IMG/VR virus record: IMGVR_UViG_3300020442_000011
Span: 1-64,000 of that record
Length of the DNA stretch: 64,000 bases
Direction: 5' to 3' (one strand)
DNA from: a virus
Numbering within the stretch: the first letter of the stretch is position 1; the number at the start of each line of letters is the position of its first letter. Both the position numbers and the translations under genes were made by a program. The notes below the pieces were generated by a model. That model made no database searches and was not told the origin of the DNA. It worked only from the letters and a program-made list of their open reading frames with translations. Below, piece by piece: positions 1-48,632 of the stretch.

Positions 1-1705
1 ATGCGTATGTTGCACAGAGCGGATTGACATCCTCGTTCTTTTCAAATAGTCGAATGCTATTGGGCATTTCGTTATTGGTTTTACCGTAAACCGTAATTGG
101 GTTAAGGCCGATACTTCGAATGTGGCTATCTGCCTTTTCTAATGCATCGACGAAAGACGTAAACACCACGGTCTTTTTAGGTGTAGTTTCGGTTATCCCC
201 TTAAAGTCTATATAAGGAACCATCTCGACATGACAGTCAATACGTTTGCGACCTAAGATACGTCCCAGTGCTTCACCTTGTATCTTAAGGTTAACGTATT
301 TAATTACGGACTTCACGTCTTTGAAACGTTCCACCATGTTCTTTGTCAGTGATGGAATGATTTGGGTTTTCTCGTAACGGTTCACCCATTTAATTTCTTC
401 ACCTGCCTGTCGTGCATCCCCATTGACACGTTGAATGAATTTGACGAAACGTTTATAGTCACTGAAATCGTTTCTCTGCGACGGTGTCTTTATTTTTTGT
501 TCAAAAAGACTAAGGCATTCGTCATAGAAGCGTTGGTCTTCAGGACGTCGTTTTTTGTAGTAATCAAAACGTTCATCAATAAACGCTTTCATTTCTTTAG
601 ATATTTCTTTGAGCGTGTAGCGTTCTCCATTAGGTATCTTAACAGGGAGTGATTTCATCACCGGTTTATCGAGACCTAACTGGCTCTTCTCAACCTTGTA
701 AGACACAATGCCAATACGATGTGATAAAATATCAATACCACGATTACCATCACGCCCGTAGATCTTCTTAAAACGCATCTTAGCGTCGTTGGAAAAGAGA
801 GGGTCAATGAGTGTTAGTAGCGGAATAGATTCGCCGCCTAGCGCCTTAATAGGCGTTCCTGACATCGGTAATACGTCACGTGCTTCTAGCCGCTGACAAA
901 GCTGAATGAAATTCTGCGTCCGAATAGATGTTTCTTCGTTTAGGTTGTGGCATTCATCCAAAATCACCAGGGTGTCTGGAGACGAAAGTTCTTTAACCAT
1001 ATCAAGAGCTTGCTTAAGCGCTTCATAGTGGAAAATGGCGATCCGTTGTCCTTTGTATTTTACACCCTGATCATAGATCCAATAGCTAGGTGGTTTCTTA
1101 TAAAGTGACTGTACACTACTTTCCCAAACACGATATAATGCATTCTTAGGACACACAACGACGATACGTTTAGCATTAAGTATTTCAGCCAGTGTGAGAG
1201 ACGAATAGGTCTTTCCCGAGCCAGCGGCAGCCGCTAAAAGATACCCACGAAGACGATATTGCTGCGTAAGTTTGTCATAGTCTTCGAAGAATTTTTGCTG
1301 GTAATCCTTCGGCCGGAAGACCATGTTGTTTATCTTTGATAAGTCGACACGTCTTTGGGGTTCTTGCTGTGTCGTTATTAACCAAGTGTTTTCAATTAAC
1401 TCTTGACGGATCTTGTTCAATGTCCTGGAGCTAACATTGCGATTACCAAACTGAATCATGTGGTCGATCATGTAACACATATCAACCGCAAAGAAACTTG
1501 GAAACGTAACTGAATTTTTCCCTATTTTAGAAAACATGTTAATATTAATACGGGATGTTTTCCAAATCTTCGAAATGTCCTTCATCATGACATCAGCAGG
1601 GATGCCGTCAATAGTGATTTCGCTGTTTATTTGATATGTCGAAGTCGAACGGACCGTTTCAGTGACTTTTACATTTCCAAGAATGCGTCTAATACCTGCG
1701 AACAT
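1..1705 (-). CDS. SF2 (SNF2/DExH-like) helicase, runs off the left window edge
   Basis: Not in ORF track. ATG at 1705 with AGGAGG RBS upstream. Manual minus-strand translation shows Walker A GYLLAAAAGSGKT, LVILDECHN and motif III SGTP. Confidence 0.85.
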   Translation of the reverse strand, partial: MFAGIRRILGNVKVTETVRSTSTYQINSEITIDGIPADVMMKDISKIWKTSRININMFSKIGKNSVTFPSFFAVDMCYMIDHMIQFGNRNVSSRTLNKIRQELIENTWLITTQQEPQRRVDLSKINNMVFRPKDYQQKFFEDYDKLTQQYRLRGYLLAAAAGSGKTYSSLTLAEILNAKRIVVVCPKNALYRVWESSVQSLYKKPPSYWIYDQGVKYKGQRIAIFHYEALKQALDMVKELSSPDTLVILDECHNLNEETSIRTQNFIQLCQRLEARDVLPMSGTPIKALGGESIPLLTLIDPLFSNDAKMRFKKIYGRDGNRGIDILSHRIGIVSYKVEKSQLGLDKPVMKSLPVKIPNGERYTLKEISKEMKAFIDERFDYYKKRRPEDQRFYDECLSLFEQKIKTPSQRNDFSDYKRFVKFIQRVNGDARQAGEEIKWVNRYEKTQIIPSLTKNMVERFKDVKSVIKYVNLKIQGEALGRILGRKRIDCHVEMVPYIDFKGITETTPKKTVVFTSFVDALEKADSHIRSIGLNPITVYGKTNNEMPNSIRLFEKNEDVNPLCATYA

Positions 1706-1757
1706 TTTTACGTTCCTCCTGTCATTTTAATTAATTCTGCTTAAAAGGCTCATAAAA

Positions 1758-1943
1758 TCACCTATGATATAGTTCGTAGGTGATCGACATTAATGTCTTT
1801 CGCTCTAAGGAGGTGATCCAGCTGCGATGTTGGTAGGAGGATTAGTTCCGTTAACTACCAGCTGGGGCCAACCATTCACCGTGAGGTGACACGTATCCCA
1901 TCAGGCTACCTACGAGCAAAAGTCCCTCCCCAATGGGGAGGGC
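1758..1943 (+). ncRNA. Candidate structured RNA containing a 16S-3'-end-complementary tract
   Basis: Intergenic. Closing stem 1772-1781/1908-1917, internal stem GTTGGTAG/CTACCAGC, TCACC-GTGA-GGTGA GNRA hairpin, terminal GC hairpin. TAAGGAGGTGATCCAGCTGC at 1806-1825. Confidence 0.5.
1924..1942. terminator. GC hairpin (CCCA-TGGG family)
   Basis: CCCTCCCC-AAT-GGGGAGGG downstream of the 1958-3076 gene, followed by TTTATGCCG. Confidence 0.7.
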
Positions 1944-1957
1944 ATTTATGCCGCCTT

Positions 1958-3076
1958 CTATGTTCCGTTTTTTACCTGACGGATAGTACCTAAGACATCG
2001 CAATGGAAAAGTTTACGACTAACAGGATTGAAATAAAAACGGCCTCGTTTAATAACTGTGGAAATATCAATAGGAGTTGACTCCCACTGACTGTTAATAT
2101 AGCGGTGTTCAGTTCTATCACGTAGGTCGTAAATTACATCAGAATCTGTAGGTCGCTGTAAGGCTTTCCAATTTACAAGGTCCTGACTCTGCGACATGAA
2201 CCCGTATTGTACCGGTTGTTTAAAACGCGCCAGTTCAGGACGTGAATTTAAATCCAACGTAAGCTTAGACTCTTGGACAAGTGTTTGGCTGTTATACTTA
2301 CTACCAATTACTGTATAAATGTCCCCACGACGTTCAACGCGTATTCGAATACCTTCTGGAGCATTTACCCAAGGATTCACACTCCATGGATTCTTATCGG
2401 GAGGAACAGTCATGCTACCGGTTGCAGGTTCTCCGGTGGCGTAATCAAGTCCGTCGTTCGTTCCTGCAATTGTCGTTATTTCCCCAATGGTTCCGTAATC
2501 CATGGAAATAGAGAAAACAGGTTGTGTGGTTAATCGCCGAAAAACTTCAAGGGTATGGGATGTACCATCAGCGTCTTGAACATAACCGATGATTAGCCCA
2601 ACAGGGTCATTCTGCCATTCACTGATCGATGTGATTTGAACATCGAAATCGAAATCAGTGAAGTAATCGTTTGAAACGAACCCCACCATTGAAAATGTAT
2701 CTATCGTATTCCCAATCATGTCGAGATCAGCGTCGTAGTAGAAACCTGCTGCTTCACTGGGTATTGCTGCATCACTAAAACCGACCTCTTCTTTTGTCGG
2801 TGTCATACTACCATCAGGGAGCTGTCTTGGTGTTCCAGGTACTCCTCGACTAATCTTACGCCATGTGTCAAAAATAAAACGATTTGACTGTAGTGTTGCC
2901 TTTGCATAACCTAGGTCTTCTTCGTTATCGACGACGGTAAGATCGCTCACTATGTCATCATGTTCGAAAACGAAGCGACCATTACTATCATCTATGAAAA
3001 TTGCTTTGTGACGTCGGGAATTAACGCGACGCATAGCGGCTAACAAGGCATTGGTATAACGTTTTATAGAAGTCAT
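1958..3076 (-). CDS. Putative tail-fibre-associated protein with ConA/L-lectin-like (TSP-C-like) beta-sandwich domain
   Basis: 372-aa ORF. Paralogous to 3487-4536 (SMVGFVS..F.FDV.ITS..NDPVGLIIGY vs SLVGFIS..YTFEV.LSS..DDFIGVIIAY), shared C-terminal YFNP motif. Confidence 0.55.
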   Translation of the reverse strand: MTSIKRYTNALLAAMRRVNSRRHKAIFIDDSNGRFVFEHDDIVSDLTVVDNEEDLGYAKATLQSNRFIFDTWRKISRGVPGTPRQLPDGSMTPTKEEVGFSDAAIPSEAAGFYYDADLDMIGNTIDTFSMVGFVSNDYFTDFDFDVQITSISEWQNDPVGLIIGYVQDADGTSHTLEVFRRLTTQPVFSISMDYGTIGEITTIAGTNDGLDYATGEPATGSMTVPPDKNPWSVNPWVNAPEGIRIRVERRGDIYTVIGSKYNSQTLVQESKLTLDLNSRPELARFKQPVQYGFMSQSQDLVNWKALQRPTDSDVIYDLRDRTEHRYINSQWESTPIDISTVIKRGRFYFNPVSRKLFHCDVLGTIRQVKNGT

Positions 3077-3086
3077 GTTATCACCA

Positions 3087-3479
3087 TTAACGTGGGACTG
3101 ACTCAGTACTCAGATTGACTTTATTCATGACCATATTAGCGGATAGGTAATATAATCGGTTATTAACGGTGGACATTACTAACGTACCTGGTCGACAGAA
3201 ACTGGAATTTCCAACATAAAGTTCCCGGCGCCATGTACCATTCGTTCTAAGGTGTATATAGGGACCGCGTGAGTCAAAGAAGCGATTACGTCCTCCATCC
3301 CTTAGTGCCGCCACTTCATCATCAGTTTCACATACCCACTCATTGGCAACTGGAATGGACGTCAACAGTTCCAGTTCTTTAGCGTTTTCTCCCGATGCAA
3401 CGAGTGCTGTTGCGTTAGTAGGGACACGATTAAAGATTGTTAAGATGCCGTCAAGCATCGATTTGAGTTGCGTACTCAT
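3087..3479 (-). CDS. Short paralogue of the flanking fibre-associated proteins, lacking the lectin insert
   Basis: 130-aa ORF. C-terminal PGTLVMSTVNNRLYYLS aligns with RGRFYFNPVSRKLFHCD and RNTMYFNPTTGRYYYTT. Confidence 0.5.
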   Translation of the reverse strand: MSTQLKSMLDGILTIFNRVPTNATALVASGENAKELELLTSIPVANEWVCETDDEVAALRDGGRNRFFDSRGPYIHLRTNGTWRRELYVGNSSFCRPGTLVMSTVNNRLYYLSANMVMNKVNLSTESVPR

Positions 3480-3486
3480 AAACCAC

Positions 3487-4536
3487 CTATAAGGTTAACA
3501 GAGTAGAATCTGTCGTATAGTAGTAGCGACCTGTTGTGGGGTTGAAGTACATCGTGTTTCTTTTCAAAACACCCGTACTCAAAAGCTGGCTGTAACTACT
3601 CGACGATGATGTCCATGCTTGGTTTTGCCATTGATAGATACGATAGTTGCGCAAATCGATGACTGGTTGTCGAAGACTTGGTTTCGTGATTGTCTTCCAT
3701 GTAGAATGTCGTTGAGAAGCACAACAATATCCGATACGTTGTTGTCCTTTAAAGACGGCTAATTCAGGGTGGTCGTTAAGGGTGAAGGTTGTTTTAGCAC
3801 TTTCTAAGTATTGGTCTTCACCGATATCACTTGTTTCAACAGTAAAGTTATCACCACTTCTGGTGATCCTCAATTTGATAGGTTTTGTTAGACCTGCCCA
3901 ACCACCCCCACCATTGCTAGGACCTGGATAAGAGCCCGTCGCAGGCTCATCGTAGGTTGGCCAGCGTAACCCGCCATAGACGTTGGCGATGGTTAGTTCC
4001 CTGGAACTAAAACTATAACGGTTGTAATCGATGCACATCGGTGCAACGCCGTTTAGACCTCGCATTACAGTGATAATGTGGCTTTGACCTGTTGATGGAT
4101 CAATCGCATAAGCAATAATAACACCAATGAAATCGTCATCACCATCGATAGATGATAGCTCAACCTCGAAGGTGTAATTTTCAAAGAGTTCGGGTGATAT
4201 AAAACCAACAAGGCTTGACGTGTTTTGCGTACATGTAATGACCTGTTGCTCTTCGTCAAACACCCACGCATTTAGTTCACTTGGATTATCGGCGTCAGTA
4301 CTGTTGGGTTGCGCCCGTGAGATTCGACTCCATGTATTAAATACTACAGAGAAATCTTCGTCGGTTCCCAACTGAGCATCTCGCTCAAAATCGCTTGTTA
4401 CAAAACCAATGGGTGCTGCAGCCAGTGTTGACGTAAACTTACCGTCTTCAGATGCTAATAAATGGTAACGACTATTGAGGGGGAGTGTTAGACGTTGTTT
4501 TACAGATGACAAAAAACGAATGGCTTCATTGATCAT
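3487..4536 (-). CDS. Putative tail-fibre-associated protein with lectin-like domain
   Basis: 349-aa ORF. DGDDDFIGVIIAY resembles the thrombospondin C-terminal DDDYAGF motif. Paralogue of 1958-3076. Confidence 0.55.
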   Translation of the reverse strand: MINEAIRFLSSVKQRLTLPLNSRYHLLASEDGKFTSTLAAAPIGFVTSDFERDAQLGTDEDFSVVFNTWSRISRAQPNSTDADNPSELNAWVFDEEQQVITCTQNTSSLVGFISPELFENYTFEVELSSIDGDDDFIGVIIAYAIDPSTGQSHIITVMRGLNGVAPMCIDYNRYSFSSRELTIANVYGGLRWPTYDEPATGSYPGPSNGGGGWAGLTKPIKLRITRSGDNFTVETSDIGEDQYLESAKTTFTLNDHPELAVFKGQQRIGYCCASQRHSTWKTITKPSLRQPVIDLRNYRIYQWQNQAWTSSSSSYSQLLSTGVLKRNTMYFNPTTGRYYYTTDSTLLTL

Positions 4537-12037: not shown

Positions 12038-12670
12038 ATGTTAAGTGATCTTTTCTACAGTCTGAAAACACTGATCCAACTTTTCTACCTGTGTTGGAAA
12101 AACAAAGTGTCGGGGTTGAAATATCCTCTTGTCAACCACATCGAAGGGGGTTTCTATTTTTACGACACTAAAAAGGAAGTCAACAACCTCCTTTTTAATT
12201 TACTAAAAGAAAATCCCATCTACCAAAAAGTTATAAAACCGCATTTCGGTAATACACCACTCATTGTAGTGGCAAGCATCAAACGAAACAAGGTCTGTAT
12301 CAGTCTATTTCGCCCTGTAAGAAGAGAAATGCAAAATGGGCTAACAACCATAGGGTCTGATTACAACAAGCCTAAAAACGCGTTTGAATTCGTTCTCAGG
12401 GATGGGTTACTGTTAAAGCCTGTTAGTAATACCCCTGAAAGTTGGACACGTAAGATCGGTTATTTCCAAGAAGACCCTGTTGCATCGTTTGAATTTGAAA
12501 TGACGGAACGTAGTCTAAGAGAGGTCGAGCATTTTATCTATATTGACTGGTACGTCCAGGAAGACACCCGTATAGAGGTTGTTCATGAAAACTTCTATGC
12601 GGTAGAGCGCCTATTTATGAATGGCGAGCTGTTCAGCTCAAGAGTAAGACCGTCTATTACTAACTTATAG
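12038..12670 (+). CDS. Hypothetical (probably early) protein
   Basis: 210-aa ORF, TAAGGAG RBS. Confidence 0.7.
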   Translation: MLSDLFYSLKTLIQLFYLCWKNKVSGLKYPLVNHIEGGFYFYDTKKEVNNLLFNLLKENPIYQKVIKPHFGNTPLIVVASIKRNKVCISLFRPVRREMQNGLTTIGSDYNKPKNAFEFVLRDGLLLKPVSNTPESWTRKIGYFQEDPVASFEFEMTERSLREVEHFIYIDWYVQEDTRIEVVHENFYAVERLFMNGELFSSRVRPSITNL

Positions 12671-12680
12671 ACGACAACAT

Positions 12681-12706
12681 AGGTCCTCCCCATTTGGGGA
12701 GGACCT
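12681..12706. terminator. Bidirectional hairpin (CCCA-TGGG family)
   Basis: AGGTCCTCCCCA-TT-TGGGGAGGACCT between convergent genes. Confidence 0.8.
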
Positions 12707-12731
12707 TATGCCGTTGCGACTTCTTTTTTTT

Positions 12732-46766: not shown

Positions 46767-48632
46767 ATGGGTATCTATGCTACCATGGTGGATTTCGAAG
46801 ATGAGTTTAATCGTCTTGAACGCCCGCCTAAGTTTGCTAACGATTATGATGTCTCACGTCCAGAAGAGCGCCAGGCTCTGGACATGCATCTTTATACTCA
46901 TTACAAGAACACAGACGTCATCGAAACATCAGCGTCGTGCCATTGTGGGTATTACACGTCGGCTCACCGCATTGGTTACATATGCGATAAGTGTCATACT
47001 GAAATCGCCAGCACAGTCGACAGAGCGATTGAATCGTCGTTATGGTTGAGGGCACCAGAAGGAACATTGGGTTTTATCCATCCTGAGTTCTGGTCGATCA
47101 TCGAGCAGCGTCTAGGTACGAGATCGTTTGACTTCCTTCGGTACATGGTCAATACGAACTATAACTTCGACTACACTAAGATCACCTCTAAGGATGCTCA
47201 ACGTACCGTCGATAAATTCCTCGCGTTTGATCCACCTCGTGGGCTTAACAACTTCATCAAACATTTCGACCGTATCATGGAAGGGTTGTTTGAACGGAAT
47301 ATCGTCAGCGGTAGCAAGGCAGAAAAAGAAGAGCTTAAAATGATTATCCAGAATAATCGTTCTTTGCTATTCCCCAAATATCTACCTGTACCATCTCGAC
47401 TTTGTTTCGTTGTTGAGACCACGACGTCGAGTACGTATATCGACGCCCCATTGCGCGATGCAATGAACGCTATCAATGCCATCACCTCCATCCGTGCCGC
47501 TCAAGAACCGATGAGTGATAAGATGGTTCAAAACGTCACCTTTGTGGCGGGTGAATCATTGGCGAAGTTTTACGACAACTACATCACACACCGCATATCT
47601 AAGAAACCAGGATTGGCACGCCGTCACATCTTCGGTAATCGTTTGCATATGAGTGCTCGTGGTGTAATTGACTCAATCAACGACCCTCATTATTTCAGCG
47701 AAATTCACATCCCTTGGGGAATGGCCTTACAGCTATTCAAGTATCACATCTTGAATAAACTTAATCATCGGGGCTTTACTGCTCGCGAAGGGATGGATCT
47801 TATCTATCGGTCTGTTCTTTGTTATAACGAAACGATTGATGAAATCCTCAATGAGTTGATTGCTGAATCACCTCAGATTGATCCTGAGTTCACTGATAAG
47901 CGAGGCATTCCTGTTTCGCTCCAACGTAACCCGACCTTGCAACGTGGATCAACCCAACTTTTCTTCATCACAAAAGTCAAAACCAAGACACGTAATAACA
48001 CCATCAGTATGTCACCTATTTGTTTGCGCGCACCTAACGCGGATACAGTGTACATAACACAGTTAGTGTGTTATGTGTAAGTCCCCTTTGTCAGTAATGG
48101 CAATTGAAACACTTCTCTAATTGCTGGAATCCACTAAAGCTGTCTCACCACAATGTTACCTGAAAAGGTCAGTTAAAAAGCATGAAGGTTTAAAAACGAG
48201 ACAGATGAGATCTACGGATCGAAATGGGTAATCAGCAGCGAAGCTCCTAAGGCGACAGCTATGGAGTGTGTCCAACGACTATCCCCGGCGGGGGAGTAGG
48301 GTCCAAGTGGACTCGAAATGGGAAGGGTCCTTAGGAGTCATCTTAAGGATCGTAATATAGTCTCGACGTCTGGGGAAAGCCCAGAGCAGTGCTTAAGTGC
48401 ACGGGTAGGACTAACGACCCTACTGAAGATCTCGTTCGATGGTGATATGTTGAATATGATTCTTATTCCGGATAATTATCTACGTGATGCGTTTGAGCGT
48501 ATCTCACCCCATCTTTGGGTGTGGTCACTTGACAAACCACATGAAATATCCAACAACCTGACACTTCAAGGTCCTGTCATCGATACAGCGGTTAACTTCG
48601 CGTCAATGACACAACCTGATATTGTCCACTAA
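46767..48632 (+). CDS. Non-virion RNA polymerase beta' subunit, N-terminal/catalytic part (phiKZ gp55-56.1-like), spliced: exons 46767-48044 and 48435-48632
   Basis: Zn finger CHCG..CDKC, KKPGLARRHIFG.R, RNPTL. Joining the exons gives an in-frame NADFDGD, 491 aa total. Confidence 0.92.
48045..48434 (+). mobile_element. Group I self-splicing intron (IA2-like), no endonuclease ORF
   Basis: Exon ends in U (GAT) and intron ends in G. P AATTGCTGGAA 48119, Q AATCAGCAG 48230, R TCCAACGACTA 48271, S AATATAGTC 48354. P3 CTTCTC/GGGAAG, two extra stems after P7, IGS GTCC pairs with exon GGAT. Confidence 0.92.

Follow-up and report, generated by a model that had tools for sequence, protein, structure and literature searches.

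In Gram-positive bacteria with RNase J, long mRNAs can carry in their leader a STAB-SD element, a Shine-Dalgarno (SD)-like sequence with about 9 nt of complementarity that protects the message in cis, and in phage T4 the endoribonuclease RegB cuts GGAG in early mRNAs. To our knowledge, only phage proteins, such as phiKZ gp014, have so far been known to touch the ribosome. The closest analogues of the element described here are the rreB/rreR small mRNAs of Alphaproteobacteria, including Caulobacter CC2171 (Rfam RF01867), among which rreB is a poorly translated 165-nt RNA with a 17-nt SD, whose extension is required for its co-sedimentation with 30S subunits (PMC5711450). A ribosome-associated non-coding RNA (ncRNA) of another kind, a Val-tRNA fragment, binds the 30S subunit of Haloferax and blocks initiation (PMC11009984). 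Short ncRNA candidates have also been named in the phages phiKZ and 201phi2-1, comprising the p40 5′ untranslated region, PHIKZ297/298, and sRNA005 upstream of gp182/gp277 (PMC8545117, PMC10914365, PMC11512511). Here we describe an RNA gene in IMG/VR virus record IMGVR_UViG_3300020442_000011, of which we analyzed positions 1 to 64,000 (hereafter the window; coordinates refer to it unless another genome is named), the first 64 kb of a 112-kb record with an estimated completeness of 37%. Judged from the genes in the window, its source is a phiKZ-like nucleus-forming jumbo phage (Chimalliviridae). Window ~1772-1952 (+) is a stand-alone gene for a structured ncRNA of ~180 nt, and this RNA carries a 20-nt complement of the 16S rRNA 3′ end. 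A literature search that included the phiKZ differential RNA-seq (dRNA-seq), Grad-seq and ONT-cappable-seq papers and reviews of jumbo phages, with the ONT-cappable-seq supplementary tables outside its reach, found no description of this RNA nor of any phage RNA complementary to the anti-SD, which agrees with the statement in a first-pass annotation of the sequence that no function had been described for it.

The complement, TAAGGAGGTGATCCAGCTGC, is located at 1806-1825 (+) in the junction between helices P2 and P3 of the RNA, with an SD core, GGAGG, at 1809-1813 and the core GGUGAUCC at 1812-1819. It occurs a single time in the window and in the 112-kb record, and the chance expectation for an exact 17-mer is ~7e-6 in 64 kb, counting both strands. 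Pairing TAAGGAGGTGATCCAGCTGC with GCGGCUGGAUCACCUCCUUA gives 20 contiguous pairs, one of them G.U, and a predicted duplex energy of -40.6 kcal/mol. From genome sequences, the 20-mer GCGGCUGGAUCACCUCCUUA is the genuine 16S 3′ end of marine and soil Gammaproteobacteria: among the matches listed, more than 120 bacterial genomes carry GCGGCTGGATCACCTCCTTA, with Pseudomonas, Halomonas, Marinobacter, Acinetobacter, Psychrobacter, Idiomarina and OM182 represented, and the match to the Rfam bacterial small-subunit rRNA model (positions 1-1533) in Marinobacter maroccanus terminates exactly at the last base of the GCGGCTGGATCACCTCCTTA 20-mer. Some hosts have another 16S terminus, ...CCUCCUUUCU. The 20 bp with one G-U that the first-pass annotation had counted are exact, and the partner is a real gammaproteobacterial 16S end; a 16S variant that would pair perfectly and without the G.U (GCAGCTGG...), sought as a hint to the host, was present in 0 of 185,579 species genomes. 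Scanning IMG/VR for the exact 20-mer returned no match, and a 14-mer scan returned more than 115 unrelated matches that were mostly ordinary strong SD sites.

Evaluating the distribution of the element revealed one homologue in each of 25 other chimalliviruses, among them phiKZ, 201phi2-1, PhiPA3, Phabio, Noxifer and pPa_SNUABM_DT01. The exact 10-mer GATCACCTCC was found upstream of the helicase gene in Noxifer, Phabio and several IMG/VR relatives, and the surrounding anatomy was always alike. A covariance model built from five relatives (R1), for which the window copy was outside the training set, found window 1768-1952 (+) over its full length at 25.6 bits (E ~3e-5 to 5e-6) as the only match in the 112-kb record. 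R1 also found single full-length copies in L004 and L010, the nearest relatives of the window, as well as in L005, Phabio and 13 further IMG/VR chimalliviruses (the 17 IMG/VR records that it found include Noxifer once again), and copies in pPa_SNUABM_DT01 and PhiPA3 (~216,215-216,391). The copies in phiKZ (212,852-213,039, +, between gp203 and gp204) and 201phi2-1 (229,018-229,201) were located by motif and anatomy, and the census is accordingly based on R1 together with motif searches, R1 giving phiKZ 11.4 bits and missing the 201phi2-1 copy. Motif searches of R1-negative records yielded coding-sequence matches only, both for GGTGATCCRG (35 records) and for AGGNGGTGATCC (5 matches, all coding).

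These homologues have gone unannotated in more than 50 GenBank phage records, and the phiKZ copy, likewise unannotated, is 100% identical in more than 40 phiKZ-like phages there. In pPa_SNUABM_DT01 a coding sequence for a "hypothetical protein", PA10_00263, has been placed on the opposite strand inside the RNA gene (L212 1531-1653; MW735835 229921-230043), which is most likely a spurious call. The family is also missing from Rfam: a search of 1600-2100 with Rfam 15 gave only chance-level matches even at E up to 10. The tract and its stems are conserved in relatives. The family is chimallivirus-specific and conserved in one large part of Chimalliviridae, bearing out a first guess at that family from the window alone. 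The stretch occurs in public sequencing runs from marine or other aquatic metagenomes, and window 1500-2200 has no DNA similarity to GenBank phages; because this marine copy is so dissimilar in DNA, the family reaches beyond cultured Pseudomonas phages.

Comparing the 26 homologues revealed that GGUGAUCC is the sole invariant block (26/26) in an alignment whose mean column identity is 47%, which supports the 16S complement as the functional heart of the RNA. In the window, UAAGGAGGUGAUCCAG at 1806-1821 fits the family block (A/G)AGG(A/G)GGUGAUCC(A/G)G, located between P2 and the central domain. Between 14 and 20 contiguous pairs with the 16S end are kept in 26/26 homologues, with predicted duplexes of -27 to -41 kcal/mol, and because the pairing runs through the 16S terminal A in 18/26, the whole single-stranded tail GGAUCACCUCCUUA is covered in those 18. 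Internal variation consists mainly of a change from GGAGG to GGGGG at a position opposite a U of 16S rRNA; A-U thereby becomes G.U, and pairing is always retained. Downstream, the flanks AGCUGC, AGUCGC and AGUCGU each make six pairs with GCGGCU through different wobble combinations. A perfect complement of the motif encoded by the phages themselves was sought in five complete phage genomes and gave 0 reverse-strand matches; with the pairing kept and no such complement elsewhere in these genomes, host 16S rRNA is the obvious conserved partner.

One alternative is that the invariant block is a protein site, a tertiary-contact element or a seed for some other RNA target containing GGAUCACC. Short invariant blocks in junctions are typical of protein sites, and predictions do not show the motif as markedly unpaired. 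Such a block would, however, leave as a striking coincidence the 14-20-nt end-to-end match to the universal 16S tail in 26 divergent genomes, and it would have to accommodate an only common internal substitution that keeps pairing (A-U to G.U), flanks that extend pairing in three wobble-compatible ways, and a complementary 11-mer that is absent elsewhere in the five complete phage genomes. We regard this alternative as improbable, albeit one that deserves to be kept in mind, and take pairing with 16S rRNA as the better account of the invariant block.

The complement is embedded in a fold that relatives share. P1, the closing stem of the minimum-free-energy fold, pairs 1772-1782 with 1907-1917 (+), and across the family 96.9% of its cells are paired with compensatory changes in 7/7 modelled pairs. 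The P2 hairpin, GACA-UUAA-UGUC at 1786-1797 (+), has a counterpart in all homologues, with 93% of cells paired and 5/6 pairs compensatory. Beyond the complement, the P3 domain (1829-1862, +; outer stem 1829-1836/1855-1862, inner hairpin 1839-1841/1847-1849) was drawn from a consensus fold with L004 and L010 in which two pairs are compensatory, and it is confined to the window subgroup. The same consensus fold gave the P4 domain (1863-1900, +), consisting of a basal stem, 1863-1867/1896-1900, and an apical hairpin, UCACC-GUGA-GGUGA at 1876-1889, with a GNRA loop at 1881-1884. An intrinsic terminator follows at 1920-1952 (+), with the stem CCCUCCCC/GGGGAGGG at 1924-1931/1935-1942 and then CAUUUAUGCC, UUUAUGCC being at 1945-1952. 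The 20-mer, closing stem, internal stems, GUGA hairpin, TATG, terminal hairpin and 20-codon open reading frame (ORF) that the first-pass annotation had picked out are all present. A second SD-like run, UAGGAGGAU at 1834-1842 (+), lies in stem P3, identical in the window, L004 and L010 and absent from other subgroups.

Covariation analyses of 24 sequences, in a model-guided alignment fitted to R1, revealed standard pairs in 90.2% of cells versus 64% in shuffles and 32-46% in slid-partner controls, with compensatory double changes in 35/38 pairs; 0/500 shuffles reached any of these measures. Independent alignment and folding with MAFFT and RNAalifold, of five Noxifer-type sequences and of the window with L004 and L010, returned the same helices with compensatory changes. 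Because of these compensatory base changes we conclude that selection acts on the RNA fold. What has been maintained by selection is this fold together with the 16S complement. Folding energies compared with shuffles gave z = -4.1 for the plus strand and -4.7 for the minus strand. The alignment itself is informative on polarity, with 75 G.U versus 20 A.C cells and pairing of 90.2% on the strand of the 16S complement versus 82.9% on the opposite one. An apical hairpin capped by a GNRA loop (GAGA, GUGA, GCGA or GGGA; GUGA in the window) is present in 18/19 model-aligned homologues, whereas on the opposite strand these loops would read UCNC. Given the G.U excess, the GNRA loops and the U-tailed terminator, the functional RNA is the plus strand bearing AAGGAGGUGAUCC, and the structured stand-alone RNA of plus-strand polarity that had been proposed from the letters alone stands.

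Signals at both ends of the gene suggest where its transcript would start and stop. A promoter-like box, TATGATATAG, occupies 1763-1772 (+), with TATG at 1763-1766 and TATAG at 1768-1772. The box (A)ATGATATAG lies directly 5′ of P1 in the window, Phabio, phiKZ and PhiPA3, its final G being the first P1 base, and the DT01 and Noxifer subgroups have the box TTGTATGTAC, in which the TATG-type G is the first P1 base. Late promoters of phiKZ read TATG with G at +1 (PMC4666361). From the promoter box we predict that the window transcript starts at G1772, the first base of P1, with G1766 as an alternative. At the other end, a terminator of one type (a hairpin, then UUAUGCC) closes all homologues on the same strand as the 16S complement. 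In 201phi2-1 the last terminator base of the RNA gene is 229,201, and this 3′ end coincides with a published transcript 3′ end, mapped to 229,201 by ONT-cappable-seq, at a terminator that was validated in vivo and was among four outperforming the lambda T0 control (PMC11512511).

Hairpins rich in G+C and followed by (U)UUAUGCC recur as terminators at window 12647-12712 (+) and as many short model matches in phiKZ, 201phi2-1, PhiPA3 and Phabio; they resemble a terminator motif that phiKZ and 201phi2-1 are reported to have in common, and they yield short false matches with the RNA model. The hairpin at 1924-1942 is bidirectional, with CAUUUAUGCC as its plus-strand tail and ACUUUUGC as its minus-strand tail, and transcription of the convergent 372-aa gene probably stops there as well. 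Four short contigs from four RNA-Seq runs of one marine metatranscriptome sample match the locus at 100% identity and depth 2-6 (1572-1744, 1577-1744, 1683-1880 and 2039-2272); they leave 1881-1957 uncovered, a gap that proves nothing. The exact phage strain was present in the sampled marine metatranscriptome and was perhaps active.

On the sequence evidence, we think it fairly probable that the RNA is a late, trans-acting phage ncRNA that works by pairing with the 16S tail (anti-SD) of 30S subunits, and 30S capture would be the best-supported mechanism given the complementarity and the rreB precedent. The RNA would be transcribed from its own phage promoter, which in many members belongs to the late TATG type and in the window is a TATAG variant, most likely from the first base of P1 to the strong intrinsic terminator. 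The P1-closed junction would display 14-20 nt, (U)AAGG(A/G)GGUGAUCCAG, complementary to the whole tail GGAUCACCUCCUUA and to a few bases of helix 45. Once exported from the phage nucleus, the RNA may pair with the anti-SD tail of the host 30S, possibly also the 70S, in a helix far longer than any mRNA SD helix. A start codon at a usable distance is missing and the bases of the SD-to-start spacer lie in the duplex, so that the resulting complex would be non-productive. Either the mRNA-docking site would then be occupied, or the folded body with its GNRA hairpin would be tethered to the 30S platform. Possible gains for the phage are rationing or shut-down of late SD-led initiation, tethering of the body, protection or blocking of the 16S 3′ end, and mere stabilization of the RNA.

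Several observations weigh against this proposal. The motif is not especially open by prediction (mean unpaired probability 0.46, the whole RNA having 0.39) and is part of a weak local hairpin in the window, and pairing beyond the 14-nt tail would require helix 45 to open. Phage genes themselves use SD sites, such as the AGGAGG before the helicase, so that a true sponge would also hit phage translation, and ribosomes are very numerous. The contigs from RNA libraries are strand-unresolved, possibly derive from DNA or helicase mRNA, and none starts at the predicted +1. Overexpression of rreB caused no slowing of growth (PMC5711450), and the RNA was not reported from the Grad-seq and dRNA-seq of phiKZ, both performed 10 min after infection (PMC8545117, PMC8244752). 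Finally, 13 near-complete chimallivirus-like records have no recognizable copy, absences that are soft as R1 is weak on distant members, and because of these records the RNA is not a core requirement of Chimalliviridae.

It is also possible, though unlikely to about the same degree as the protein-site or seed alternative, that the 16S complement only recruits 30S subunits for protection from decay in the manner of STAB-SD, with the function residing in the folded body, for example as a protein scaffold or decoy. SD-like elements without a start codon do stabilize RNAs, as in the STAB-SD of the Bacillus thuringiensis cryIIIA leader, and this precedent fits, as does the preservation of the fold (P1, P2 and the GNRA hairpin) by covariation, which suggests that the body matters. 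That body varies in sequence and in domains, however, P3 being found only in the window subgroup and phiKZ having an extra hairpin, whereas the only invariant residues are those of the 16S complement and a protein scaffold would be expected to keep others. Moreover, the terminator follows directly and the next gene is convergent, leaving no downstream message to stabilize, and a stabilizer would still need 30S binding.

Far less probable is a small mRNA of the rreB/rreR kind, in which an over-long SD drives or throttles a micropeptide, here the 20-codon ORF MLVGGLVPLTTSWGQPFTVR at 1827-1889 (+), whose start codon comes 13 nt after GGAGG. Its ATG lies one base after the complementarity, akin to the rreB GUG that overlaps the end of its own, and RNAs of this kind, able to bind 30S, do exist in the form of the rre genes' products. 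Across the family, however, 13/26 homologues have no ATG, GTG or TTG within 30 nt after the SD core and the remainder differ in start, frame and length, with no equivalent ORF in L004, the nearest relative, and another start in another frame in L010. Because the family lacks a conserved small ORF and even the closest relatives do not keep this one, we judge it to be incidental and reject the mRNA or micropeptide reading, one of the two roles that the first-pass annotation had offered for the plus strand. The ORF also crosses stems P3 and P4, whose conservation pairing explains, and the Rfam CC2171 (RF01867) match reaches 13.3 bits vs a threshold of 75, on the SD letters alone.

The position of the element relative to the helicase gene bears on a further alternative. 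In the window, phiKZ and Noxifer-like phages the element is 67-100 nt upstream of the helicase start and on the opposite strand; it is on the helicase's strand in L004 and PhiPA3, 0.75-2.8 kb away in Phabio and L016, and ~30 kb away in the DT01-like group. Because its place and orientation vary, a terminator follows and the next gene in the window is convergent, the RNA gene is not the leader of any gene, and the RNA is not tied to the helicase. We therefore give little credence, as little as to the small mRNA, to the reading in which the minus strand is functional and a 16S-tail mimic in the helicase 5′ leader (CUGGAUCACCUCCUUA) masks the AGGAGG, or in which the plus-strand RNA is an antisense regulator of the helicase. 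This reading draws on the close opposite-strand arrangement in the window, phiKZ and Noxifer-like phages, on one RNA-library contig (1683-1880) that bridges the helicase start and the element, and on a minus strand that folds well (z = -4.7), but the G.U pairs and GNRA loops fix the plus strand, and a gene that can lie on either strand or some 30 kb from the helicase does not suit the sequestered ribosome-binding site that had been suggested at first. An antisense role in some genomes, for its part, cannot explain the family-wide invariance of the 16S complement. A degenerate captured 16S 3′ domain on the minus strand, considered by eye, was likewise rejected, because Rfam gives no small-subunit rRNA signal and the polarity data favor the plus strand.

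A feature of the DNA or its assembly without RNA function (a cassette of promoter and terminator, a replication element beside the helicase, or rRNA or primer sequence that was captured) has almost no probability left and is effectively refuted by conservation and covariation. In its favor, classical primers of the 1492R/1525R type correspond to the reverse complement of the 16S end, and the contig end is only 1.8 kb away; but the identical sequence (100%) recurs in independent runs of several studies, both DNA and RNA, 25 other genomes, some of them from cultured and finished phages, have homologues, compensatory changes show selection on the RNA fold, and the rRNA resemblance is limited to 20 nt, with Rfam giving no small-subunit rRNA similarity at the locus beyond them.

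The element lies in a gap of 252 nt (1706-1957), bounded on one side by the start of the helicase gene and on the other by the stop of a gene for a 372-aa tail-fibre-like protein; the two neighbors are on the minus strand and outside the RNA. The helicase (2-1705, -) is SNF2/DEAD-like, a homologue of phiKZ gp203 that is truncated by the contig start (phrog_62 8e-80; Pfam ResIII and SNF2), and it shares 49.5% identity with its counterpart in Pseudomonas phage Noxifer and ~40% with relatives of phiKZ gp203, with P0002 and P0003 as its closest relatives at 67-69%. Searches for related loci seeded with the 372-aa protein or the helicase alone returned nothing, and alignment of helicase homologues succeeded. 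In PhiPA3 (HQ630627 216447-219179), and also in phiHQ, BRkr, PA1C and PS119XW, the helicase match is split in two over ~2.7 kb vs 1.7 kb; the gp203-type gene of these phages probably has a ~1-kb insertion, an intron or intein, with none in the window copy. The 372-aa gene (1958-3076, -), convergent with the RNA gene, encodes a tail-fibre-like or virion structural protein (phrog_36886, phrog_21285, phrog_33406). Over 1958-4536 (-), two paralogous tail-fibre-like genes of ~350-370 aa, with matches to the same three phrogs, flank a 130-aa ORF without a family match. The sole Rfam match that reaches its gathering score in the window lies elsewhere, at 48046-48386 (+), and is a group I intron (RF00028) scoring 50.7 bits over the full model.

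Nucleus-forming jumbo phages take over translation with mRNAs that have to leave the phage nucleus and compete for host ribosomes. A conserved phage RNA whose one invariant feature mirrors the mRNA-docking tail of the ribosome would add an RNA-based layer of control, a natural "anti-anti-SD" tool. We tentatively suggest, at somewhat less than an even chance, that chimalliviruses encode the first known viral RNA to target the ribosome by base pairing: a late, abundant, untranslatable RNA that would lock the anti-SD tail and re-program, ration or shut down SD-dependent initiation toward the end of infection or tether its own body there, and that may, because its complementarity runs into helix 45, invade immature 30S particles. 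This suggestion is directly testable in phiKZ, 201phi2-1 and PhiPA3, for which genetics, antisense knock-down, Grad-seq and cryo-electron microscopy exist.

Set beside the systems introduced above, the phage RNA as proposed is like RegB of T4 in being a phage device against SD-dependent initiation, whereas RegB is a protein acting on the mRNA side and not on the anti-SD of the ribosome. The named phiKZ and 201phi2-1 candidates resemble it in being short, structured and terminator-bounded, and they show that chimalliviruses make abundant small RNAs; these named candidates, to which the comparison is limited, lie at other loci and none has been described as 16S-complementary. Like the Val-tRNA fragment, it would be a small ncRNA on the small subunit competing with mRNA, whereas ncRNAs of that type are cellular processing products at the decoding site or mRNA channel, without anti-SD pairing, and none is known to be phage-encoded. 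It is like STAB-SD in having an SD-like sequence without a start codon at initiation distance that is thought to bind the 16S 3′ end without initiation, and differs in having no downstream message, 14-20 nt of complementarity, and an SD-like stretch enclosed in a closed junction instead of lying at a free 5′ end. The rreB/rreR RNAs are the most similar, both being stand-alone RNAs of ~165-185 nt with their own promoter and terminator, and both have at least 16-17 nt of perfect complementarity to the 16S 3′ end, the phage RNA having 20 nt (one G.U) in the window and 14-20 nt in the family. Against RF01867, however, only the SD letters and terminator of the phage RNA align (13.3 bits vs the gathering score of 75), and the rre genes are chromosomal (plasmid-borne in Azospirillum) with a conserved 14-18-codon ORF whose GUG overlaps the end of the complementarity, whereas the phage RNA is viral, has no conserved ORF, and has a different, covarying multi-helix fold with a GNRA hairpin.

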